Below are positions 1,952-28,546 of a stretch of DNA of 64,000 nucleotides, one piece after another. The translations under genes were made by a program, and so were the position numbers. The DNA is from Firmicutes bacterium UBA3930 (GTDB lineage: Bacteria > Bacillota > Clostridia > Caldicoprobacterales > Caldicoprobacteraceae), in NCBI GenBank assembly GCA_002385885.1, contig DGEI01000027.1, positions 7,530 through 71,529 of the forward strand, in the 5' to 3' direction. The notes beneath the pieces were generated by a model that did no database searches, had not been told where the DNA came from, and worked only from the letters and a program-made list of their open reading frames with translations. Every line of letters begins with the position of its first letter. The stretch's first letter is position 1.

Positions 1952-2377
1952 AATTCTCATCTCTCCTCTTATATAATTTTTATTGTTTACCATTGTACAC
2001 AAAAGAGGAGAAAAAAACAAGTATTATTTTGGCATTGTAAAGTGCAAAAAATGTTCTACCTCAATATAAAAAATGGAAATTATGGAAGCTCGTGCAAAAA
2101 AACTTGTGTAAAGAATTATTATATGATATAATTTTAACAAATAACAATATCAGATCAAACCTTAACAAAAGTCATATTTATAATGAGTTCATGCAAGTCT
2201 TTTGGTTTTTTTATTAGTAAATGATGTTTCATTAAATATAAAATAAATACCGAACTCTGTCCGGGCAAAACGCTGTGGTGTATTATACGGGATATTTATC
2301 CGGTTGTATGCAATTGGAATTGAATTATTAATTTGCTGTTTTCATATTGTTCCATGAAAAAGAGAGTAGGCGAAATA

Positions 2378-4987
2378 ATGGTTAAGGGAATTATCAGGAC
2401 AATTCCTGAGAAATGTGTGCAGTGTTATGCATGCGTACGCAATTGTCCTGTAAAGGCCGTGGCCATCCGGGACGGAAAGGCACAGATAATACAGGAAAGG
2501 TGCATTCACTGTGGGAACTGCGTTGATATTTGTTCCCAAAATGCAAAGGAGGTCTTAAACGGGACAGGCAACACACTGCATTTAATAGAGAAAGGAAATG
2601 CAATAGCCATAGTTGCACCCTCCTTTCCTGCGGCATTTAACGGCAGGGTGGGAAAGTTCCCATGCGCTCTCCGGAAGCTGGGCTTCGTACAGGTATGGGA
2701 AGTAGCGACAGGTGCAGAGCTTGTGGTGGAGGCGTGTAGATCTTTTCAATTTGGGGATCATCCATACATCAGTTCATCCTGTCCGGCAGTTGTTAATCTG
2801 ATAGAAAGGCACTACTCCCAGTTTGTGCCCTATCTCATTCCGGTAGTTTCACCCGCAATTGCAACTGCCAGGTTAATAAGGCATTGTTATCCAAATGACA
2901 GCTTCAATATAGTATTTATTGGGCCATGTATTGCAAAGAAAGGAGAGATCCGTCAATCCTCTGTCAGTGGGGATATTCAGGAAGTCCTTACATATGCAGA
3001 ACTTGACGAACTGCTTAAACTCAAAGGGATTGACTGGAACGGCTTAAATGAGGGATCTTTTGACGGGCCCCGGGCATCCCTTGCATACTCCTTTCCAATA
3101 TCCGGCGGACTTTTAAGGAATTTAAACCGTACCCAGGATATACTTCAGGAGGAATATGCAGTAATTGATGGTATGAAGAACTGGATGGATATTTTAGAGA
3201 TACTTGAACATGAGAAGAACAGGGTACGCCTTATAGACGGATTGTTTTGCAATGGGTGTATTGATGGATTTGGCATGAAGGGAAGGGGGAATATTCTGGC
3301 GAGGAAGTCGTCTCTTCTTCAGTATATACGTTCAATCCCGCTTAAAGAACAGGCTGAAGGGAAGGCATGGCTGCTTAGTGCGGACGTTGACCTGGGCCGC
3401 CGTTTTAAAGAACTGAAGGTAACCCTCCCCCAGCCTGATGAGGGGGACATAATTGAAATACTTCAGAGGACCGGCAAGGCAAAGCCTGAAGATCAGATGA
3501 ACTGCGGAGCATGCGGCTATCCATCATGCAGGGAAAAAGCAATTGCCGTATACCAGGGAATAGCAGAAGTGGAAATGTGCCTTCCTTATCTTTTGACTCA
3601 AAAAAGCCAACTGGTTGAATCCTTGGATAAAGAACTTGAAATGATCCGGGAACTTAAAAAAGAGCTGGATATCCTTATTGATGCTTCCTATGATGGAATA
3701 TGTATGACCGATAACCGTGGGAATATCCAAAGAGTAAACCGTACTTTTGAACAGTTTGTCGGTATTGATGAAGAAAAGCTTATAGGGCTGAATATGTCTT
3801 TCCTGGAAAAGGAGAACTTATTATTCCCTTCGGTTACTATGGCGGTGGTAAGAGCTAAAAAAGCCGTAACCTTTGTTCAAAGCCTGCATACCGGTAAGAA
3901 GATACTAGCCACCGGTAATCCTGTAATGGATGAAGATGGGAACATTGTGAGAATAATTGCCAATCTTCGTGATTTTGATCTGATGCAGAAGATACGGGAA
4001 GAACTGGACAATGTTTACCATCCGTCTGTCATTGAAAAAATTGATAAGGATAATCCAATTATTGCATTGAGCCGGGAATTTACCAGGATTTTGGAGATGG
4101 CTGCACGGGTGGCCGTGGCAGATTCGAATGTACTTATACTGGGTGAATCAGGAGTGGGAAAAGAGGTTATTGCCCGATTTATTCATAAAAACAGTCCAAG
4201 GGCCAATGGCCCGTTCGTAAAGATAAACTGCAGCGCACTACCCGAATCCCTGATAGAATCCGAATTGTTCGGTTATGAAACCGGCGCTTTTACAGGAGCC
4301 AGTCCCAAAGGGAAACCCGGCTTATTTGAAGTTGCCCAGGGTGGAACTCTGCTTTTGGATGAAATGGGTGAACTGCCCCTTTCGCAGCAGGCCAAATTAT
4401 TACAGGTAATTCAGGAAAAGCAGGCATTTCGTATAGGTGGTACCAAACCGCGGAAAATAGATGTTCGTATTCTGGCTGCCACCAACAGGGATTTGGCAGC
4501 TATGGTTAAGGAAGGAAATTTCCGTGCCGATCTGTTCTATAGATTGAATGTTATACCTATCCGTATTCCACCATTGAGAGAACGAAGGGATGATATTATA
4601 CCTCTGATGTACTTTTTCCTGGAACGGTATAACAAGCGTTATAATAAAGAATGCAGAATGTCAAAAGAAGCAAAAGAGGTTTTTATGCAGTACTACTGGC
4701 CGGGGAACGTACGGGAGCTGGAAAATATGGTGGAACGGTTGGTTGTCATAGCACAGAAAAATATAATTGATGTTGATGATTTGCCGCCTGTTATGAAAAA
4801 ACCCTATGAACCCGAAGAAATACTTGTGCTTCGGGAGATACTGCCCCTTAAGCAGGTGCTGGAGGAAGCAGAAAGGCAGCTGCTCATGAAAGCCAGGAGC
4901 GTTTACAACAGCACATATAAGATGGCACAGGCCTTGGGTGTTAACCAATCAACAGTAGTGCGAAAGCTGAAAAAATATTTCGATTAG
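2378..4987 (+). CDS. Sigma-54-dependent transcriptional activator with N-terminal ferredoxin + [FeFe]-hydrogenase-like (HydS-like) sensory domain, Fe-S motif, PAS, AAA+ and HTH
   Basis: Two CxxCxxCxxxCP motifs and degenerate H-cluster motifs SSSCPAV / GPCIAKKGE / FCNGCIDGFG. Also a CGACGYPSC..C motif, Walker A GESGVGKE, GAFTGA (4283-4300) and a C-terminal HTH (QALGVNQSTVVRKLKK). The start (M16 of the ORF-track protein) is uncertain. Confidence 0.85.
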   Translation: MVKGIIRTIPEKCVQCYACVRNCPVKAVAIRDGKAQIIQERCIHCGNCVDICSQNAKEVLNGTGNTLHLIEKGNAIAIVAPSFPAAFNGRVGKFPCALRKLGFVQVWEVATGAELVVEACRSFQFGDHPYISSSCPAVVNLIERHYSQFVPYLIPVVSPAIATARLIRHCYPNDSFNIVFIGPCIAKKGEIRQSSVSGDIQEVLTYAELDELLKLKGIDWNGLNEGSFDGPRASLAYSFPISGGLLRNLNRTQDILQEEYAVIDGMKNWMDILEILEHEKNRVRLIDGLFCNGCIDGFGMKGRGNILARKSSLLQYIRSIPLKEQAEGKAWLLSADVDLGRRFKELKVTLPQPDEGDIIEILQRTGKAKPEDQMNCGACGYPSCREKAIAVYQGIAEVEMCLPYLLTQKSQLVESLDKELEMIRELKKELDILIDASYDGICMTDNRGNIQRVNRTFEQFVGIDEEKLIGLNMSFLEKENLLFPSVTMAVVRAKKAVTFVQSLHTGKKILATGNPVMDEDGNIVRIIANLRDFDLMQKIREELDNVYHPSVIEKIDKDNPIIALSREFTRILEMAARVAVADSNVLILGESGVGKEVIARFIHKNSPRANGPFVKINCSALPESLIESELFGYETGAFTGASPKGKPGLFEVAQGGTLLLDEMGELPLSQQAKLLQVIQEKQAFRIGGTKPRKIDVRILAATNRDLAAMVKEGNFRADLFYRLNVIPIRIPPLRERRDDIIPLMYFFLERYNKRYNKECRMSKEAKEVFMQYYWPGNVRELENMVERLVVIAQKNIIDVDDLPPVMKKPYEPEEILVLREILPLKQVLEEAERQLLMKARSVYNSTYKMAQALGVNQSTVVRKLKKYFD

Positions 4988-5304: not shown

Positions 5305-5320
5305 TGGCATGGTTTTTGCT
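5305..5320 (+). promoter_or_regulatory. Sigma-54 (-24/-12) promoter of the hydrogenase operon
   Basis: TGGCATGGTTTTTGCT matches TGGCAC-N5-TTGCW with exact GG/GC spacing. It sits 45 nt upstream of the hndA-like ATG and immediately downstream of a sigma-54 activator gene. Confidence 0.8.
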
Positions 5321-5364: not shown

Positions 5365-5871
5365 ATGGAGGTAAGGCAAGTCGATAATCCTGATGTTCAG
5401 AGGCAAAAAGTAGAGGACATTATATCGGCATACAGGGATAAGCCGGGAGCGCTTATACCGGTATTGCACGAAATTCAAAACGCTTTAGGGTATCTGCCTC
5501 GCTGGGTTCAGTACAGGGTATCCAATATCATGAATATTCCTGTCAGTGAAGTAAACAGCATTATAAGTTTTTATGCCTTGTTTTCTGAAAAACCAAAAGG
5601 AGAATATGCGATTGGTGTTTGCAAGGGAACGGCCTGTTATGTGCGTGGTGCGGATAAGATTATTGAAAAACTGGAAGAAGAGCTGGGCATAGAAGCGGGA
5701 GATACCACGCCTGACGGCAAATTTTCAATTGAGGTGATGCGCTGCCTTGGAGCCTGCGGTTTAGGTCCCGTTATGGTAATAAACGATGATATCTACACAA
5801 GAATTAAACCCGACAAGGTAAAGGACATAATAAATGCCATACGGCAGAAGGATGGGAGTGAGACCACATGA
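5365..5871 (+). CDS. NuoE-like [2Fe-2S] subunit of multimeric [FeFe] hydrogenase (HndA/HydC type)
   Basis: Cys motifs CKGTAC and CLGACGLGP. The stop overlaps the next start (ATGA). Confidence 0.9.
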   Translation: MEVRQVDNPDVQRQKVEDIISAYRDKPGALIPVLHEIQNALGYLPRWVQYRVSNIMNIPVSEVNSIISFYALFSEKPKGEYAIGVCKGTACYVRGADKIIEKLEEELGIEAGDTTPDGKFSIEVMRCLGACGLGPVMVINDDIYTRIKPDKVKDIINAIRQKDGSETT

Positions 5872-6239
5872 CATCTATGGAAGTGTATAACAGGCTTAAG
5901 GAAAACGTACTGAAGACGAAACGGGAATATGATGAAGGCTATATAAGCATAGTGATTCAGCTGGGGATATGCAGCCAGGCTGCAGGTGCAGTGGAAGTTG
6001 TAAAGGCTCTGGAAGAGGCCATATTTCATCAGGGTATAAAGAATGTAGTTATAACTAAAACCGGTTGTGCGGGATTTTGTGCCTATGAGCCTGTGGTAAC
6101 GATAAAAAGAAAGGGCTCTAAACCGGTTACCTACTGTCGGGTGACGCCCGACAAAGCCCGGATCCTGGTGTCCGAGTATGCGCTTAAAGGGCGGATCATT
6201 CAATCCTGGACATTGATGGGGAAGGATGTGATGCTGTAA
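5868..6239 (+). CDS. Thioredoxin-like [2Fe-2S] ferredoxin subunit (HndB-like)
   Basis: 123-aa ORF translationally coupled on both sides. It has a GCAGFCAYEP-type motif and the position expected in an hnd-type operon. Confidence 0.75.
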   Translation: MTSMEVYNRLKENVLKTKREYDEGYISIVIQLGICSQAAGAVEVVKALEEAIFHQGIKNVVITKTGCAGFCAYEPVVTIKRKGSKPVTYCRVTPDKARILVSEYALKGRIIQSWTLMGKDVML

Positions 6240-9200
6240 TGGAAATGTACAGAAATCATGTGCTGGTATGCGGAGGTGGCGGTTGTCAATCCTCGGGATG
6301 CCAGATCATCCGTGACAGGCTTATTGAAAGTATTAAGGATAAAGGACTGGAAGAGGAAATTAAAGTAATTGTTACAGGGTGTATGGGACCCTGCTCGCTG
6401 GGCCCTATGATGATAGTGTATCCCGAAGGTGTATTTTACTGTAAGCTGATTCCTGAATATGTGGATGATATAGTTGAAAAGCATCTATATCAGGGGACAC
6501 CGGCAGAGGAATATTTCTACAGGGATCCATATACCGGCGAGGCAATGGCTACTGTTCATGAAATTCCCTTTTTTACAAGGCAGAAAAAAATAGCATTAAG
6601 AAACGTTGGAACGATTGATCCATTAAATATAGATGAGTATATTGCATTCAACGGATATTTTGCTTTGGGAAGGGTGGTTACCCGGTTTACTCCGAAAGAA
6701 ACAATTGAAATTATAAAAAGATCCGGATTGAGAGGAAGAGGCGGAGCGGGTTTTCCCGCAGGGCTTAAATGGGAATTTACTGCTGAGGCTCAGGGAACGC
6801 CCAAATACGTGGTTTGCAACGCGGATGAAGGAGATCCGGGGGCTTTCATGGACAGAAGTATAATAGAGGGAGATCCACATACATTGATCGAGGGTATGGC
6901 CATTGCCGGATATGCTGTTGGTGCAAATCAGGGGTATGTCTATATTCGGGCCGAGTATCCGATGGCAGTGAAGCACCTTGAAAATGCAATAAGGCAGGCA
7001 AGGGAATACGGTTTGCTGGGATCAAATATACTGGGGACCGGGTTTGATTTTGATTTGGAGATCCGGGTAGGAGCAGGAGCATTTGTATGCGGGGAAGAGA
7101 CTGCGCTTCTGGCATCGGTTGAAGGCAAACGGGGTGAACCAAGGCCTAAGCCTCCGTTCCCGGCGCAGCAGGGTTTGTGGGGCAAACCTACACTTCTTAG
7201 CAATGTTGAGACATATGCCAATGTTCCTGCCATCATCCTGGAAGGCCCCGAGTGGTTCAGAAGCATAGGGACCGGGAAGAGCCCCGGAACAAAAGTGTTT
7301 GCCCTGGCAGGCCAGGTTGAGAACACCGGTTTGGTTGAAGTTCCCATGGGGACACCTCTTGGAGACATTATATTTGATATCGGCAGCGGAATTATCGATA
7401 AAAAGGAATTTAAAGGTGCTCAGACCGGCGGTCCTTCAGGGGGATGCATTCCTGCCGGCGGGCTTAACGTACCGGTGGATTACGAATCCCTGAGGGACTG
7501 GGGCACCATAATGGGTTCGGGGGGCCTCATCGTTATGGATGAAAATACCTGTATGGTAGACCTTGCCAAGTTCTTCCTGGAATTCTGTCAGGATGAATCC
7601 TGCGGCAAGTGTACCCCCTGCCGGTTGGGGACAAAAAGAATGCTGGAGATACTTCAGAGAATAAGCGAGGGCAAAGGCCGGGAAGGCGACATTGAAAAGC
7701 TCATTGAACTTGGTGAGGATATTATGGACACCGCACTGTGCGGTTTAGGTCAGACCGCTCCAAACCCGGTGCTTAATACCATCCGGTATTTCAGGCAGGA
7801 GTATGAAGAGCACATTCACCATAAATACTGCAGGGCTTCGGTATGTGCATCGCTTTTTGATGCACCGTGTCAGAATGCCTGTCCTGCAGGAGTAGATGTG
7901 CCTCAGTATATAGAGTATATACAGAGGGGAATGTATATGGAGGCGGTAAACAGTATCCGGGAGATGAATCCGTTTCCATCTGTATGCGGCAGGGTATGTA
8001 CCCATCCATGCGAGGCAAGGTGCAGGAGGGCACAACTGGATGAGCCTTTGGCTATCCGCAGCCTAAAAAGGTTTGCAGCAGATTATGAGCTTGAGCACGC
8101 TGATGCATTTTATTTTGATTTGGAAAGAGAAGGCAAAACTAAAAAGGGTAAGAAGGTGGCAGTTATAGGAGGAGGGCCTGCCGGGCTTACTGCTGCCTAT
8201 TATCTGGCAATATGGGGATATGACGTCACTATATTTGAAGCTTCCCAAAGACTGGGGGGGATGTTGAATTATGCCATTCCTCCGTATCGTCTGCCCAATG
8301 ATGTGCTGCATAAGGAGATCGATATAATACTCAAGTCGGGTGTAAATGTTATTACCGGTATTAAGGTGGGAGCTGACATAAGCCTGGATGTAATAAGAAA
8401 GAGCTTTGATGCCGTGTTTATGGGGATCGGCACTCAGCAGCCGGTAAAGCTTGGGGTTAAAGGTGAAGACGCCGAGGGTGTCATGACTGCGCTGGAATTT
8501 TTACGGATGATAAATGAGGGAAATATGCCAAGCGTCGGGAGGAAAGTTGTTGTTATTGGCGGCGGAAGTACTGCCTTTGATGCCGCGCGATCGGCTTTGA
8601 GACTGGGTGCCGAGGAAGTTGCCATTCTTTACAGAAGGAGCAGGTGGGATATGCCGGCGCTGCCCGAAGAAAAGATACATGCAGCCGAGGAAGGGGTAAA
8701 GATCTATGACTATATTGCACCTTTGGAGATCATAGTGGATCGCCATGGGAGGATGGAAGGGCTGCGCTGTATACGTATGGCAAAGGGTGAATTTGACAGC
8801 AGCGCCAGGCGAAGGCCGGTACCTATAAAGGGTTCGGAATTCAGGATGGATGCTGATACACTGCTTATAGCCATAGGTGCCCAGGGTGAGGTAGAAGGAT
8901 TTGGAGAGATAAAATCTACCAGGTGGAAGACATTTGAAGTCAACCGGGAAACCCTTGAAACTTCTTTAAAAGGTGTGTTTGCCGGTGGAGATTGTGTGCG
9001 TGGGCCTGACACGGTGATACAATCCATAGCCGATGGACGAAAAGCGGCTTTAGCCATTGACCGGTACCTGGGAGGAAACCGGATAGAGGCTGAAAAGGCG
9101 CGCAGAGAAAGGAAGCGGCAGTATTTTGCAACAATTATAGAAAACGAGCAGTCAAGGCTTACAATACCCGTGCTTGAGCCTGAAGAAAGAAAGAGAAATT

Positions 9201-9280
9201 TTGATGAAATAGAACTGCCCTTCGACCACAGAATCTGTCAGCAGGAGGCATTTCGCTGCCTGCGCTGCGATGTGAGATGA
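6239..9280 (+). CDS. NuoF-like flavoprotein subunit (HndC/HydB type) fused to a C-terminal GltD/NfnB-like NAD(P)H-FAD oxidoreductase module
   Basis: N-terminal 2Fe-2S thioredoxin-like fold (VLVCGGGGC, GCMGPC) and NuoF motifs GLRGRGGAGFPAGLKWEF, NADEGDPGAF, ESCGKCTPCR. From about 7825 there are GltD-type Fe-S motifs (CQNACPAG, CGRVCTHPCEARC) and two dinucleotide folds (VAVIGGGPAGLTAA, VVVIGGGSTAFDAA). Confidence 0.9.
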   Translation: MEMYRNHVLVCGGGGCQSSGCQIIRDRLIESIKDKGLEEEIKVIVTGCMGPCSLGPMMIVYPEGVFYCKLIPEYVDDIVEKHLYQGTPAEEYFYRDPYTGEAMATVHEIPFFTRQKKIALRNVGTIDPLNIDEYIAFNGYFALGRVVTRFTPKETIEIIKRSGLRGRGGAGFPAGLKWEFTAEAQGTPKYVVCNADEGDPGAFMDRSIIEGDPHTLIEGMAIAGYAVGANQGYVYIRAEYPMAVKHLENAIRQAREYGLLGSNILGTGFDFDLEIRVGAGAFVCGEETALLASVEGKRGEPRPKPPFPAQQGLWGKPTLLSNVETYANVPAIILEGPEWFRSIGTGKSPGTKVFALAGQVENTGLVEVPMGTPLGDIIFDIGSGIIDKKEFKGAQTGGPSGGCIPAGGLNVPVDYESLRDWGTIMGSGGLIVMDENTCMVDLAKFFLEFCQDESCGKCTPCRLGTKRMLEILQRISEGKGREGDIEKLIELGEDIMDTALCGLGQTAPNPVLNTIRYFRQEYEEHIHHKYCRASVCASLFDAPCQNACPAGVDVPQYIEYIQRGMYMEAVNSIREMNPFPSVCGRVCTHPCEARCRRAQLDEPLAIRSLKRFAADYELEHADAFYFDLEREGKTKKGKKVAVIGGGPAGLTAAYYLAIWGYDVTIFEASQRLGGMLNYAIPPYRLPNDVLHKEIDIILKSGVNVITGIKVGADISLDVIRKSFDAVFMGIGTQQPVKLGVKGEDAEGVMTALEFLRMINEGNMPSVGRKVVVIGGGSTAFDAARSALRLGAEEVAILYRRSRWDMPALPEEKIHAAEEGVKIYDYIAPLEIIVDRHGRMEGLRCIRMAKGEFDSSARRRPVPIKGSEFRMDADTLLIAIGAQGEVEGFGEIKSTRWKTFEVNRETLETSLKGVFAGGDCVRGPDTVIQSIADGRKAALAIDRYLGGNRIEAEKARRERKRQYFATIIENEQSRLTIPVLEPEERKRNFDEIELPFDHRICQQEAFRCLRCDVR

Positions 9281-9297
9281 GAGGGAGGGATTGAATA

Positions 9298-11055
9298 ATG
9301 CAGATAAAAATAAACGGAGTCGTATCAGAGGTACAACCCGGAATGACCATACTTGAAGCTGCCAGGGAAATGGGAATTGATATCCCTACCCTTTGTTACC
9401 TTGAAGGTGTGCATGAAGCTGGCGCCTGCCGTGTATGCATTGTAGAGGTCAAAGGAGCCAGAACCCTGGTACCTGCTTGTATAACCGAAGCAGCAGATGG
9501 TATGGAAATCTTCACACATACTTCGAGGGTAAGGCGGGCCCGAAGGACGATAATAGAGCTTATGCTTTCCGATCATCCCGATGAATGCCTGACCTGCGGA
9601 AAGAACAATCAGTGTGAGCTGCAAAAACTGGCCAGAGCCATGAATATACAGGAAAGAAAGTATGAGGGCGAGTATTCCTCAAGGGTGATAGATGACGGGT
9701 CTCCGGCAGTGATCAGGGATTCGGGCAAATGTATACTTTGCCGCCGGTGCCTTAGCGTATGCAGTATGATACAGGATGTGAATGCCATAGCTCCTATTGG
9801 CCGGGGTTTTAAAACTGTTATTGCACCGGCAGGGAAGGAGCCTATAAACCAGTCACCTTGCGTACAGTGCGGCCAGTGCGTAAATGTATGCCCAACAGGG
9901 GCCATCATTGAAAAAAGTGATGTTATCAGGGTATGGGAGGCATTGGAAGATCCGCGGAAGCACGTTGTAGTACAGGTTGCCCCGGCGGTAAGGGTGGCAA
10001 TTGGAGAAGTTTTTGGTCTGGAACCCGGAACATCCGTTACCTGGAAAATGGTTTCTGCTCTAAAGAAACTTGGATTTGACAGGGTATTTGATACCAACTT
10101 TACGGCTGATTTAACAATCATGGAAGAGGGAAGCGAGCTTATACAAAGAATTAATGAAGGTGGCAGGCTGCCAATGATTACATCCTGCAGCCCGGGCTGG
10201 ATAAATTACATGGAATACTTCTTCCCGCAGCTTGTTGAACATCTGTCCACCTGCAAATCACCTCAGCAGATGTTTGGAGCCGTTATTAAGACTTACTATG
10301 CTGATAAGGCCGGAATACCGGCTGAGAACATATTTGCAGTATCGGTTATGCCCTGTACCGCTAAAAAATATGAGAGCCAGCGGCCGGAAATGTATTCAAG
10401 CGGATACCGGGATGTTGATGCTGTGCTGACCACCAGGGAGTTGGGAGCTATGCTTAAGGAAGCCGGAATTGACCTGTTATCATGCGGCGAAGAAACTTTT
10501 GATCAGCCGTTTGGAGCCGGCAGCGGCGCAGGGGCTATATTCGGGAACACCGGCGGTGTCATGGAGGCAGCTTTAAGAACGGTATATGAAATACTGACCG
10601 GTGATGAGCTTGATAATTTGAATTTCCATCAGGTAAGAGGGTTAACCGGAGTTAAAGAAACTAGTGTAAAAATAGGAGGCAGGGAGTTTTCGGTTGCAGT
10701 AGTGCATGGCCTTGGGAATATCAGAAAAATATTGGAAGATATTGATAAGGGAAGGAGCAGATATCATTTTATTGAAGTCATGTGTTGTCCCGGAGGATGT
10801 ATTGGGGGCGGCGGCCAGCCCATTTCAAAAGATCCCGGGATAAAGGAAAAGCGTATTGCAGGTTTGTATAGGGAGGATGAGGGGCTTCCTGTTCGAAAGT
10901 CCCATGAAAATCCTGCAGTACAGGAACTGTATCGGGAATTTTTGGGCCATCCCCTTGGACACAGATCCCATGAGCTGCTGCATACCCGATATAGAAACCG
11001 AAGGGAGCAGGAATATGAGAACCATTGGAAGACAGACAGTTTGTCCAAAGCTTAG
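9298..11055 (+). CDS. hydA: [FeFe] hydrogenase catalytic subunit (M3-type, HndD/HydA)
   Basis: N-terminal 2Fe-2S domain, an HxxxCxxC..C cluster and two CxxCxxCxxxCP motifs. H-cluster motifs are TSCSPGW (L1, atypical), MPCTAKKYE (L2) and EVMCCPGGCIGGGGQP (L3). GGGAGGG RBS. Confidence 0.9.
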   Translation: MQIKINGVVSEVQPGMTILEAAREMGIDIPTLCYLEGVHEAGACRVCIVEVKGARTLVPACITEAADGMEIFTHTSRVRRARRTIIELMLSDHPDECLTCGKNNQCELQKLARAMNIQERKYEGEYSSRVIDDGSPAVIRDSGKCILCRRCLSVCSMIQDVNAIAPIGRGFKTVIAPAGKEPINQSPCVQCGQCVNVCPTGAIIEKSDVIRVWEALEDPRKHVVVQVAPAVRVAIGEVFGLEPGTSVTWKMVSALKKLGFDRVFDTNFTADLTIMEEGSELIQRINEGGRLPMITSCSPGWINYMEYFFPQLVEHLSTCKSPQQMFGAVIKTYYADKAGIPAENIFAVSVMPCTAKKYESQRPEMYSSGYRDVDAVLTTRELGAMLKEAGIDLLSCGEETFDQPFGAGSGAGAIFGNTGGVMEAALRTVYEILTGDELDNLNFHQVRGLTGVKETSVKIGGREFSVAVVHGLGNIRKILEDIDKGRSRYHFIEVMCCPGGCIGGGGQPISKDPGIKEKRIAGLYREDEGLPVRKSHENPAVQELYREFLGHPLGHRSHELLHTRYRNRREQEYENHWKTDSLSKA

Positions 11056-26290: not shown

Positions 26291-26330
26291 TTATATGACA
26301 GAACCAGAAAATGTTTTAAGGGGGAGCGGT

Positions 26331-27161
26331 ATGTATAAAATTGTTTATAAAGAAAAACTGGCTTCAGGTATTTGGATGATGAAGGTTATGGCTCCGCTTG
26401 TAGCAAGGAAAGCCATGCCGGGACAGTTTATTATCCTTCGGGTAGATGAAGAAGGGGAAAGGATCCCGTTGACCATAGCAGATTTTGATCGGCAGGAGGG
26501 GTGGATAACCATTATATTTCAGGAGGTTGGATTGACCACACGTCTTCTGGCTGCTCTAAACGAAGGAGACAGCATTCTCGATTTTGCGGGTCCGCTGGGC
26601 AGACCGTCGGAGCTTGATGGTTTAAAGCGGGTGTTATGCATCGGCGGCGGGGTTGGCGTAGCGCCTTTGTATCCCCAGGTCAAACACCTCTGGGATAATA
26701 ACTGCAGCGTTGATGTTATTATTGGAGCAAGAAACAAGGATTATCTGTTATTGGAGAAAGAAATGAAAGCTGTATGCAATAACCTGTATATAACAACCGA
26801 CGACGGTTCCTGCGGACGAAAAGGATTTGTTTCGGATGTGCTTAAGGAGTTGTTGGAACAAGGGAATCAATATGATATGGTAATCGCTATTGGTCCCTTA
26901 ATCATGATGAAAGTGGTGTCACAGATAACCAAACAGTATGATGTGCCTACAATTGTCAGTATGAATCCGGTGATGATAGATGGTACCGGGATGTGCGGTG
27001 GCTGCCGTGTTACAGTGGGAGGAGAAGTGAGATATGCCTGTGTTGACGGCCCCGACTTTGACGGTCATCTTGTAGATTTTGACGAAGCCATGAGGAGACA
27101 GCAGATGTACAGGGAAGAAGAAAACCATATCTGCAGGATAATGGGAATGGAGGGTGTATAA
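26331..27161 (+). CDS. nfnA: NfnA-type ferredoxin-NADP reductase-like subunit (sulfide/dihydroorotate dehydrogenase-like FAD/NAD-binding protein)
   Basis: Has PGQFIILRV, GGGVGVAPL and a C-terminal CGGCRV..C 2Fe-2S motif. GGGGGAG RBS. The stop overlaps the nfnB start. Confidence 0.85.
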   Translation: MYKIVYKEKLASGIWMMKVMAPLVARKAMPGQFIILRVDEEGERIPLTIADFDRQEGWITIIFQEVGLTTRLLAALNEGDSILDFAGPLGRPSELDGLKRVLCIGGGVGVAPLYPQVKHLWDNNCSVDVIIGARNKDYLLLEKEMKAVCNNLYITTDDGSCGRKGFVSDVLKELLEQGNQYDMVIAIGPLIMMKVVSQITKQYDVPTIVSMNPVMIDGTGMCGGCRVTVGGEVRYACVDGPDFDGHLVDFDEAMRRQQMYREEENHICRIMGMEGV

Positions 27162-28546
27162 TGGCTTTGATATTGAAAAAAGTTTCCATGAAGGAACAGG
27201 ATCCACAGGCAAGACGCAGCAATTTCAGAGAGGTAGCCCTGGGGTACAGCCTTGAGGAGGCCATGGAAGAGGCCCGGCGCTGTCTTAATTGTAAAAGACC
27301 CCTATGTGTGGAAGGCTGTCCCGTAAATGTTAACATCCCTCAGTTTATACAGGCTATAACCCGGGGGGACATACAGCAGGCATACAGTATAATATGTCAA
27401 ACCAATAATCTTCCTGCCATATGCGGGCGGGTTTGCCCACAGGAAACACAATGCGAGCAAAAGTGCGTACTGGGGAAACGGGGCGAACCGGTAGCCATTG
27501 GACGGCTTGAGCGGTTTGCGGCCGATTATTGCATAGAACGCGGAATTGAAGAGAATGTGGAAATACAGCCTAACGGGCGAAAAGTGGCAGTTATAGGAGC
27601 GGGGCCTGCCGGGCTTACGGCTGCTGCTGATCTGACCAAACTCGGGTACGAAGTAACGATTTTTGAAGCTTTCCACGAACCGGGTGGAGTTCTGATATAC
27701 GGCATACCCGAATTCAGATTGCCCAAATCTCTGGTCAAGAAAGAGATTGGAGGTCTGAAGAAGCTGGGCGTAAATATCCGGACCAATGTTATTGTCGGCA
27801 AAACTATTACCATTGATGAACTGATTGATGCCGGATTTGAAGCTGTGTTCATAGGAAGTGGTGCAGGCCTTCCCAAATTTATGGGTATTCCCGGTGAAAA
27901 TCTGTGCGGCGTGTATTCCGCCAATGAATATCTGACCCGCATCAATCTGATGAAAGCCTTTGATTTTCCCAACAGTCATACACCGGTAAAACACGGGCAA
28001 AGAGTGGCTGTTGTCGGAGGCGGCAATGTAGCTATGGATGCTGCCCGGTGCGCTCTCAGGCTGGGCGCCGGTGAGGTGTATATTGTGTACCGGCGTTCGG
28101 AAGCCGAAATGCCTGCAAGGGTTGAGGAGATACACCACGCAAAGGAAGAGGGTATTATATTCGAATTGCTGACCAATCCGGTGGAAATCATTGGTGAGGA
28201 CGGATGGGTAAAAGGTTTGAAATGTATAAGGATGGAGCTGGGGCAGCCGGATCAATCGGGCAGGAGGAGGCCTGTTCCGGTGAAGGGCTCGGAATTTGTT
28301 ATGGATATTGATATTGTAATAATGGCAATTGGTACCAGCCCCAATCCGCTGATTGCATCTACAACACCGGAACTGGCGGTTGAAAGCTGGGGTGGTATTA
28401 TAGTTGATGAAGAGACCGGAGCTACCAGTAAGGATGGTGTATATGCCGGCGGTGATGCCGTAACCGGAGCTGCTACGGTTATACTGGCCATGGGAGCCGG
28501 GAAAAAGGCAGCCAGGGCAATTCATGAGAAGCTGTCCGGTCAATAA
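27161..28546 (+). CDS. nfnB: NfnB / NADPH-dependent glutamate synthase small-chain-like oxidoreductase
   Basis: CLNCKRPLCVEGCPV, CGRVCPQETQCEQKC, VAVIGAGPAGLTAA and VAVVGGGNVAMDAA. Confidence 0.9.
   Translation: MALILKKVSMKEQDPQARRSNFREVALGYSLEEAMEEARRCLNCKRPLCVEGCPVNVNIPQFIQAITRGDIQQAYSIICQTNNLPAICGRVCPQETQCEQKCVLGKRGEPVAIGRLERFAADYCIERGIEENVEIQPNGRKVAVIGAGPAGLTAAADLTKLGYEVTIFEAFHEPGGVLIYGIPEFRLPKSLVKKEIGGLKKLGVNIRTNVIVGKTITIDELIDAGFEAVFIGSGAGLPKFMGIPGENLCGVYSANEYLTRINLMKAFDFPNSHTPVKHGQRVAVVGGGNVAMDAARCALRLGAGEVYIVYRRSEAEMPARVEEIHHAKEEGIIFELLTNPVEIIGEDGWVKGLKCIRMELGQPDQSGRRRPVPVKGSEFVMDIDIVIMAIGTSPNPLIASTTPELAVESWGGIIVDEETGATSKDGVYAGGDAVTGAATVILAMGAGKKAARAIHEKLSGQ

Follow-up and report, generated by a model that had tools for sequence, protein, structure and literature searches.

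A HydABC-type [FeFe] hydrogenase operon whose HydB subunit carries a GltD-type, putatively NADP(H)-binding module in place of the ferredoxin-type domain

The whole stretch of DNA analysed here (64,000 nucleotides of contig DGEI01000027.1 from Firmicutes bacterium UBA3930, hereafter the window) contains a four-gene [FeFe]-hydrogenase operon. Its third gene encodes a flavoprotein that we call HydB*, in which a NuoF-type HydB half of usual make-up is continued by a GltD-type half. The genes of this operon and the parts of HydB* are the following (lengths in amino acids, aa):

5365-11055, + strand: the four-gene hydrogenase operon, with NuoE-like HydC, a small [2Fe-2S] protein, HydB* and HydA
5365..5871, + strand: HydC/BfuC, NuoE-like, 168 aa, with the [2Fe-2S] cluster "C1" (Pfam, NCBIfam)
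5868..6239, + strand: small thioredoxin-like [2Fe-2S] ferredoxin (HndB/"BfuD"-like), 123 aa (NCBIfam, Pfam)
6239..9280, + strand: the whole of HydB*, 1013 aa, in an unbroken open reading frame
6239..7858, + strand: HydB*/BfuB core, aa 1-540, with an N-terminal [2Fe-2S] cluster, flavin mononucleotide (FMN)/NAD(H) site, [4Fe-4S] cluster B1 and four-helix bundle
7811..7846, + strand: conserved hinge with the zinc ("B2") site motif H525-x5-C531-x4-C536
7868..9079, + strand: GltD-type body, aa 544-947, with a helical domain for two [4Fe-4S] clusters, a flavin adenine dinucleotide (FAD) Rossmann fold and an NADPH Rossmann fold
9155..9280, + strand: C-terminal tail, aa 973-1013, with the Cys pair C1007/C1010 (RCLRC)
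9298..11055, + strand: HydA/BfuA, catalytic [FeFe] hydrogenase, 585 aa (Pfam, NCBIfam)

We hold the identity and the architecture of HydB*, as described here, to be nearly certain. An original prediction for this stretch had described one continuous 1013-aa protein with an HndC/HydB half and a GltD half and had placed the second module at 7825-9280: the frame is indeed unbroken, all the motifs that it quoted are present, and the module starts at about aa 530-544 (nt 7826-7868), in agreement with those coordinates. The domain definition that it had called for gives the same division, Pfam splitting HydB* into NuoF-type domains (2Fe-2S_thioredx 5-81, Complex1_51K 159-330 and NADH_4Fe-4S 441-525) and then Fer4_20 (530-620, profile positions 18-111 only) and Pyr_redox_2 (638-933), while the NCBIfam model PRK12771 spans residues 496-1010 above its cut-off.

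The fusion is widespread and recurs far more often than chance could explain. A protein database search with HydB* gave more than 8000 matches, the best 120 of which were all ~1010 aa long, with 58-100% identity, nearly all of them spanning the whole query and named only "NuoF". With a 173-residue junction query, 65 of the 400 genomes sampled across the phylum of the source organism gave a total of 67 open frames of ~1010-1060 aa that span the junction, and a junction-alignment scan of one genome per species confirmed at least 598 fusion loci. The distribution survey that had been proposed for such NuoF-GltD fusions leads in this way to many phyla, the taxa including Clostridia, Syntrophales, Desulfobacterales, Dehalococcoidia, Bacteroidales, Spirochaetes, Planctomycetota, Armatimonadota, Omnitrophota, Acidobacteria and a Loki archaeon. 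Cultured carriers include Thermanaeromonas toyohensis ToBE, among the database matches, and Syntrophus gentianae DSM 8423 (PMC11406978). The source assembly is 83% complete and lies in 47 contigs, which could speak for an artefact, namely that an error of sequencing or assembly near 7800-7870 had merged a hydB gene with a separate gltD/nfnB-like one. Such an artefact has almost no chance of being the explanation: the same continuous frame is present in hundreds of independent assemblies, complete genomes among them, and the junction sequence is itself conserved (P543 in 41 and C544 in 42 of 42 fused proteins from at least 30 families, whose alignment is the basis of all the residue counts given below). 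The original prediction had also allowed that a frameshift or missed stop near 7800-7830 might separate two genes; none is present there, and such an error is excluded because the same open frame recurs across those hundreds of assemblies.

The first half of HydB* has the features of a BfuB. In phmmer comparisons, residues 4-544 match the HydB chains of A. woodii (7q4v_B, 768 bits) and A. mobile (7t2r_B, 760 bits), and the core also matches T. kivui HydB, StnB and C. saccharolyticus NfnB, the HydB/NfnB/StnB chains scoring between 619 and 768 bits. The alignment to the HydB chains passes "EYEEHIHHKYCRASVC", the counterpart of the conserved "EYEAHIRDKKCPAGVC" of 7q4v_B, 8oh5_B, 8a6t_B and 9bov_B, and stops there, so that homology to canonical HydB ends at 540-544, just past the hinge. 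This hinge region is the zinc ("B2") site ahead of the mobile C-terminal domain that holds clusters B3/B4 (PMC11829005). The hinge residues H525, C531 and C536 are invariant in the fused proteins (42/42), as are the B1 cysteines C455, C458, C461 and C501 (42/42), and the N-terminal [2Fe-2S] (B5) cysteines C11, C16, C48 and C52 are present in HydB*. Residues A202 and M204 near the FMN (A. mobile numbering) are a signature of bifurcating enzymes that is not found in non-bifurcating homologs (PMC9304861); HydB* aligns without gaps to residues 151-260 of A. mobile HydB (7t2r_B) with both residues identical, and in the GAFMD motif all 42 fused sequences have G201, A202, M204 and D205, and 40 have F203. 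HydB* therefore combines what marks a BfuB: a NuoF core with FMN site and B1, cluster B5 and the zinc hinge, A202/M204, and BfuC and BfuA as neighbours. Pfam finds no Fer4 dicluster domain (B3/B4) in HydB*; the Fer4_20/Pyr_redox_2 module stands there instead.

An AlphaFold2 model of HydB* built from 49 homologs (mean predicted local distance difference test score, pLDDT, 87; predicted template modelling score 0.83) falls below a pLDDT of 50 only at 537-540, right after the hinge cysteine, and at 629-632, and its C-terminal tail is confident (pLDDT 86-92 over 961-1010). The first half of the model can be superposed on 9bov_B over 524 residues (Z 55.1, root-mean-square deviation 2.0); in a structure search with the whole model, the matches listed are filled by NuoF chains and so bear on this first half. 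Some structure alignments to NfnB chains that include their C-terminal domain (CTD) reach model residues 596-606, a faint hint that the GltD clusters may occupy the place of B3/B4.

The source genome offers an internal comparison, with the following genes:

L003 6599-14295 (genome G000, contig C25), - strand: second, canonical hydrogenase operon
26295-27161, in the window: nfnA, the only one in the window, paired with its own nfnB and 17 kb from the fusion
27161-28546, in the window: nfnB, with an N-terminal RCLNC Cys pair

The canonical operon encodes, in this order, a HydS-like protein (439 aa), a PHP protein, NuoE (162 aa), a HATPase (184 aa), a 2Fe-2S protein (128 aa), HydB (598 aa) and HydA (582 aa), and its subunits share 38-65% identity with their counterparts in the window operon (45% for NuoE and HydC). 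Its HydB (L003 8370-10166), the one NuoF-type protein besides HydB* in this 1.9-Mb, 83%-complete assembly, shares 65% identity with HydB* over residues 1-540, after which comes a Fer4 dicluster domain; it ends with the two [4Fe-4S] ferredoxin motifs that the original prediction had named as usual for such subunits. Because the homology stops where this Fer4 dicluster domain begins, the GltD module replaces exactly the ferredoxin-type domain. The organism would have a ferredoxin-port and an NADP-port hydrogenase side by side, together with NfnAB (26295-28546), and NfnB and HydB* are the only two proteins with GltD-type modules in its genome.

The GltD fold of the second half of HydB* is taken as settled from the sequence matches (E 1e-127). 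Residues 542-1011 score best against the GltD-like region of C. saccharolyticus NfnA (9bov_A 102-567, 429 bits), T. sibiricus NfnA (9n5u_A, 409 bits) and StnC (8oh5_C 102-567, 349 bits), ahead of the NfnL chains 4ylf_B (313 bits) and 5jca_L (311 bits). By BLASTP, HydB* is 45% identical to the NfnB of the window over 419 aa (E 7e-101), in line with the alignment along the whole module that had been noticed originally. What had been missed is that the topology is permuted: the first ~45 residues of NfnB, with their RCLNC Cys pair, align (7-44) to the tail of HydB* (973-1010, E 1e-4), so that the module is circularly permuted relative to NfnB. The same tail aligns to residues 530-567 of 9bov_A and 8oh5_C, which read "RCLEC" at 563-567. 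The tail Cys pair C1007/C1010, present in all 41 complete fused sequences, is thus the likely counterpart of the N-terminal CxxC of NfnB and would, together with C544 and C595, complete the distal [4Fe-4S] site.

The residues of the module are conserved to a similar extent. Its cysteines C544, C548, C583, C587, C591 and C595 are invariant (42/42); so are the FAD motif GxGxxG (G644/G646/G649), with E667 in 41 sequences and Asp in one, and the NADPH motifs GxGxxA (G774-G776, A779) and Y798-R799-R800. The FAD- and NADPH-binding residues, whose check had been suggested, are thus in place across the 42 fused proteins, and the idea of a complex with two flavin/pyridine-nucleotide sites is sustained by these intact motifs. 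The position of K610, also invariant (42/42), is Glu in NfnB, the window NfnB reading "RLERF" there; K610 aligns to K170 of StnC/NfnA, which in StnC is the strictly conserved lysine ligand of the FAD-proximal [4Fe-4S] cluster and is essential by mutagenesis (PMC10482914). Given the best bit scores, the permuted C-terminal RCLxC and the Lys ligand K610, the module of HydB* is assigned on its sequence to the StnC/NfnA (Nfn-Bfu) type rather than to the NfnB/NfnL type. The Stn study argues from structure that the FAD of the StnC region is non-bifurcating (PMC10482914), and the NfnABC study regards the same FAD as the entry point of NADPH and as non-bifurcating, since it stands at the end of a linear chain (PMC11829005). 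The suggestion that Nfn-like chemistry is built into the complex is not supported.

The partners of HydB* are those of a HydABC complex. HydC matches Pfam 2Fe-2S_thioredx at 17-159 (E 5e-52) and the NCBIfam models of the NuoE/HoxE family, while the product of 5868..6239 matches NCBIfam fdxn_Clost (E 1e-6), its Pfam 2Fe-2S_thioredx match being weak. HydA consists of an N-terminal [2Fe-2S] and NuoG-like cluster region, an H-cluster domain and a small-subunit domain (Pfam Fer2_4, NADH-G_4Fe-4S_3, Fe_hyd_lg_C with E 3e-102, and Fe_hyd_SSU), reaches 898.6 bits against NCBIfam NF040763 (cut-off 765) and carries the H-cluster motifs TSCSPGW, MPCTAK and EVMCCPGGC. At 10180-10200 the motif thus reads TSCSPGW and not TSCCPxW. 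This is no peculiarity of the locus, as the canonical paralog also has TSCSPGW, and so do 37 of 39 further HydA genes examined (one of the two others has TSCSPAW and one, a non-adjacent copy, gave no match); it is a trait of the HydA lineage.

Gene context was compared at 40 loci from other genomes of at least 30 families, which contain 41 fused genes; one of these lies at a contig end, the contig stopping inside the gene, so that 40 have a readable downstream neighbour. Among those with readable flanks, 36 of 40 sit between a NuoE-like gene and a full-length HydA gene, often with a HATPase-like and/or small 2Fe-2S gene intervening, and NuoE-[HATPase]-[2Fe2S]-HydB*-HydA is a conserved operon. 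A NuoE-like gene adjoins the fused gene in 40/40 loci, and a homolog of the small [2Fe-2S] ferredoxin stands between the two in 21/40. The remaining four fused genes adjoin alpha subunits of molybdopterin formate dehydrogenases instead of HydA:

L055 10594-11658: FdhA-type partner gene of a fused NuoF-GltD gene
L063 4780-5844: the same
L059 11481-14267: the same
L065 5101-8346: the same, fused to the NuoE-like gene

In two of these four FdhA partners, the context "HCARL*H" contains an in-frame TGA and the frame stays open to ~896 aa, a pattern compatible with selenocysteine. The stretch 4108-20000 of L055 (G254:C21) contains a pair of fused NuoF-GltD genes 8 kb apart, of which one goes with the Sec-FdhA and the other with HydA; an nfnA/nfnB-like pair precedes them. 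At two further loci (L050 12893-16818 and L052 2674-6579), a second NuoE-HydB-HydA set stands directly beside the fused-type operon; the HydB of this second set has 548-551 aa and is devoid of any C-terminal cluster domain, like the non-bifurcating Syntrophomonas type.

Upstream of the window operon, two features bear on its regulation:

2333..4987, + strand: probable operon regulator, 884 aa, with a HydS-like sensory [FeFe]-hydrogenase domain, PAS, sigma-54 AAA+ activator and helix-turn-helix (HTH) domains
5305..5319, + strand: element TGGCATGGTTTTTGC, which resembles a sigma-54 (-24/-12) promoter; the first hydrogenase gene starts 45 nt downstream of it

The regulator (Pfam Fe_hyd_lg_C 90-312, PAS, Sigma54_activat 577-743 and HTH_50) stands directly upstream of the hydrogenase operon and also has an FeS motif; a homolog, full-length or partial (some lacking the hydrogenase part), precedes the fused-HydB operon in 14/40 loci. 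The promoter element was found by a pattern search, with one mismatch to TGGCAC-N5-TTGC, and is suggestive by position only, since the number of such matches in the window is no higher than expected by chance. Two regulatory layouts recur: the HydS-PAS-sigma-54 activator upstream, as in the window, or a short HydS with PHP and HATPase, which is the layout of the canonical hydrogenase operon of the same genome.

The module also appears to have moved. In a quick tree of NuoF cores (67 rows, 42 fused and 25 non-fused; LG+G4 model, Shimodaira-Hasegawa-like approximate likelihood ratio support, midpoint root), a single clade (95% support) takes in 39 of the fused sequences together with two canonical HydBs and two CTD-less ones, the short HydBs of L050 and L052 being nested inside, while three of the four formate-dehydrogenase-paired fused genes branch outside it. 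This tree forces at least four changes of module type, and a single origin of the fusion is not supported by it. Two members of the same genus make such a change visible: one locus (G282, L071) has HydS-sigma54, NuoE, HydB* and HydA, the other (G384, L178) has NuoE, a canonical 608-aa HydB and HydA with no HydS-sigma-54 gene at the locus, and flanks and cores are 84-87% identical. A ferredoxin-type domain in G384 takes the place of the GltD body of L071 (9896-11225). The ~120 bp past the stop codon of the G384 HydB (L178 9642-9761, G384:C74) have 87% DNA identity to the last ~40 codons of the fused gene (L071 11226-11345, G282:C2), and this untranslated relic still reads "...RNFSEIRLGFTEDMAVAEAVSCCRCDVREP*"; a 53-codon open frame from an internal Met could still cover it. 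Because a relic of the fused C-terminus follows a canonical HydB, a ferredoxin port must have replaced the putative NADP(H) port in the G384 lineage and left a fossil tail. Judged from the tree and from this same-genus pair, the C-terminal module behaves as an exchangeable port.

In Bfu enzymes, the mobile HydC cluster carries the low-potential electrons away from the B1-FMN-C1 site, and they pass through B3/B4 to ferredoxin (PMC11829005). The explanation that we prefer overall, and to which we give about an even chance, is that HydB* belongs to a HydABC/Bfu-type hydrogenase in which this mobile ferredoxin-reducing port is replaced, right after the zinc hinge, by an NADP(H) port, namely the cassette of two [4Fe-4S] clusters, FAD and NADPH site that is found inside the large subunit of Stn/Nfn-Bfu enzymes. 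H2 would be oxidized at the H-cluster and its electrons would travel through the HydA clusters to the B1-FMN-C1 site, where one pair would leave to NAD+ as a hydride at the FMN, while the other pair would pass by the HydC [2Fe-2S] cluster and the two clusters of the GltD module to the FAD, which would gather two one-electron transfers of the low-potential branch, and on to NADP+. The net reaction would be 2 H2 + NAD+ + NADP+ = NADH + NADPH + 2 H+, with no ferredoxin involved; on the sequence evidence, such ferredoxin-free coupling of NAD(H) and NADP(H) falls just short of even odds. In a fermenter, the reverse direction is the likely one, NADH and NADPH being co-oxidized to make H2. With physiological potentials of -280 mV for NADH and -380 mV for NADPH (PMC9304861), the mean of -330 mV equals, by calculation at 25 C and pH 7, that of the H+/H2 couple at roughly 10^2 Pa H2, while NADH alone would allow H2 formation up to a few Pa only; co-oxidation could therefore sustain H2 at pressures beyond those reached with NADH alone. 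The wider proposal, of a pyridine-nucleotide-only bifurcating/confurcating hydrogenase whose ports are interchangeable cassettes also used with formate dehydrogenases, is more tentative still.

Several points weigh against this NADP(H)-port explanation. We found no enzyme assay of any NuoF-GltD fusion member in the literature, and the NADPH specificity of the module is read from its motifs only. The source organism would not need such an enzyme to link these pools, because NfnAB and a canonical HydABC are also present. H2 can reduce NAD+ and NADP+ uncoupled under standard conditions, which makes the selective value of keeping a bifurcating core a matter of argument only. By analogy with NfnL, the distal cluster might still dock ferredoxin; ferredoxin was the guess for the acceptor at the module in a related archaeal complex (PMC11216029), and in the paper that described the architecture a possible second bifurcating FAD is favoured (PMC11406978).

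This last idea, shared by the original prediction and the postulate of PMC11406978, would give the complex two bifurcating centres, the FAD of the GltD module splitting the pair from NADPH as in NfnB/NfnL, with ferredoxin still a substrate. The 45% identity to the window NfnB along the whole body would agree with it, as would the Arg equivalent to NfnB R201/StnC R239 (R684, invariant in an alignment of homologs) and the distal [4Fe-4S] cluster of NfnL, which is the ferredoxin site in NfnSL (PMC10482914). We nevertheless rate it as rather improbable, since all 42 sequences have Lys as the ligand of the proximal cluster, where NfnB has Glu, the module is most closely related to those of StnC/NfnA, whose FAD at the end of a linear chain is regarded as non-bifurcating, and no NfnA/NfnS-like [2Fe-2S]/FAD partner is encoded in the window operon or at 38/40 loci, the two exceptions (L055 and L065) having complete, separate nfnAB-like pairs. 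A complex that does not bifurcate at all, with two independent doors at which NADH (at the FMN) and NADPH (at the FAD) each exchange electrons with the H-cluster, would resemble Hyd1ABC of Syntrophomonas wolfei with added use of NADPH. HydBs devoid of B3/B4 are non-bifurcating in S. wolfei and S. aciditrophicus (PMC7311640, PMC9304861), the CTD-less HydB genes of L050 and L052 (548-551 aa) nest in the fused clade and adjoin fused operons, and H2 can reduce either nucleotide uncoupled under standard conditions. Set against these points, HydB* keeps the N-terminal [2Fe-2S] cluster, the zinc hinge and A202/M204, which non-bifurcating homologs lack or change, and its module, by its position after the hinge, would be reached through the gated HydC cluster and not through the mid-potential B1 path, as far as can be judged from the structures of PMC11829005; on balance, we consider two such doors unlikely, although they have to be reckoned with.

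Acceptors other than NADP+ could also be envisaged, since the GltD family includes enzymes that act on polysulfide or sulfur (SudA/NsoC) or Fe(III) (SfrB) (PMC7483475), and a true GltD function with a glutamate synthase large subunit would recall the link on which HydDB speculated for group A2 (PMC5037454). Such acceptors are very improbable: the NADPH motifs are invariant, and NADPH is also what the SudA/Nso/Sfr enzymes use at this site; a single Glu_synthase-domain gene of the genome passes the family cut-off, at a distance of ~129 kb on the contig; and none of the loci examined showed a glutamate synthase next to the fused gene, in a screen that covered reference proteins only. That single gene lies outside the window (G000:C22:144471-145388, in a 436-aa open frame) and has no GltD-type gene of its own, and a link of the operon to glutamate synthase was discarded. 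The original association with "glutamate-synthase-linked" hydrogenases fails on the classification as well: HydDB requires for A2 a GltD/GltA-type neighbour devoid of NuoF and assigns an enzyme with a NuoF-bearing neighbour to A3 (PMC5037454). The neighbour of hydA bears NuoF domains here, which rules out A2 in favour of A3, and by this same rule the variant stays hidden inside A3.

About one in six sampled genomes of the phylum carry the variant, which also extends from Syntrophales to Dehalococcoidia and to Asgard archaea, and in genome surveys it passes for one of the usual ferredoxin/NAD "group A3 bifurcating" hydrogenases or is plainly called "NuoF". If such enzymes couple H2 to NADH and NADPH in either direction, and not to ferredoxin, the metabolic models made for many fermenters, syntrophs and acetogens are wrong about a major redox valve. 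They would then also be a natural experiment on the Bfu mechanism, with a low-potential branch that ends in a two-electron flavin/NADP+ sink, for which the same-genus pair that differs in its module provides ready-made chimeras.

The gene is a new member of a published class; its architecture, whose novelty the original prediction had implied, was described in 2024 (PMC11406978, PMC11216029). What we add is the assignment of the module to the Stn type from its Lys ligand and permuted tail, the estimate of prevalence, the pairing with (selenocysteine) formate dehydrogenases, and the evidence for cassette swaps, including a same-genus swap with a fossil tail. A GltD module on HydB is not mentioned in Losey 2020, Schut 2022, Baymann 2018, the preprint on anaerobic methanotrophic (ANME) archaea or the Pelotomaculum paper. 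The Bfu family paper presents the cofactor set of BfuB, including B3/B4 as the ferredoxin-reducing site, as invariant and leaves the variant unmentioned (PMC9304861); this may be because BfuB sequences were chosen partly by their 4Fe-4S ferredoxin-type signature.

Compared with the electron-bifurcating HydABC enzymes (A. woodii 7q4v, T. kivui 8a6t, T. maritima 7p5h; Bfu Type 1, PMC9304861), the window complex has the same three core subunits and gene order, a HydB that is co-linear over residues 1-540 with FMN site, B1, N-terminal [2Fe-2S] cluster, zinc hinge and A202/M204, and a HydA with an H-cluster, but HydB* is devoid of the B3/B4 ferredoxin-like domain and has instead 470 extra residues for FAD and an NADPH site. 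NfnAB/NfnSL large subunits (window 27161-28546; T. maritima 4ylf_B, P. furiosus 5jca_L) share the GltD fold and cofactor set, but their N-terminal CxxC, proximal Glu, bifurcating FAD and obligatory NfnA/NfnS partner have no equivalent in HydB*. The closest NADP(H) cassette, with the permuted RCLxC and the Lys ligand, is that of StnABC/NfnABC (8oh5, 9bov, 9n5u; PMC10482914, PMC11829005, PMC12018979), which also have NuoE/NuoF-type partner subunits. Their cassette, however, lies inside the BfuA-type subunit, between the [2Fe-2S] and NuoG/Fdh-like domains, and feeds the mid-potential input path, while their BfuB keeps its ferredoxin domain; in the window complex it is the BfuB subunit, HydB*, that bears the cassette, at the site of the lost ferredoxin domain, and the BfuA subunit is a true hydrogenase. 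Judging from its genes, the complex with HydB* is not an Stn/NfnABC.

The same NuoF-GltD fusion within a hydrogenase complex has been modelled for HydB of the archaeal group F hybrid [FeFe]/[NiFe] hydrogenase, built from NuoF-type and glutamate synthase small chain parts (Cell 2024, PMC11216029), whose partners differ (a HydA-HyhS fusion, HyhL and HydD) and for whose module ferredoxin was the acceptor guessed. The nearest counterpart is the "sub-type I BfuB" of Hydrogenedentota, with homologs in several phyla, for which a second bifurcating FAD was postulated (mSystems 2024, PMC11406978). In these BfuABC(D) complexes, known from sequence and predicted structure only, B3/B4 are likewise replaced by DPD_II, with two [4Fe-4S] clusters, and a C-terminal FAD/NAD(P) domain, and bfuA and bfuC, in some cases also bfuD, belong to the same gene cluster. 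HydB* has this layout, Fer4_20 (the model of DPD domain II, 530-620) and Pyr_redox_2 (638-933) following its NuoF core. The window member differs in coming from a Firmicute-type metagenome-assembled genome with a HydS-sigma-54 activator, and its Lys ligand and StnC/NfnA-type module point to a plain NADP(H) port rather than to the second bifurcating FAD of that paper.

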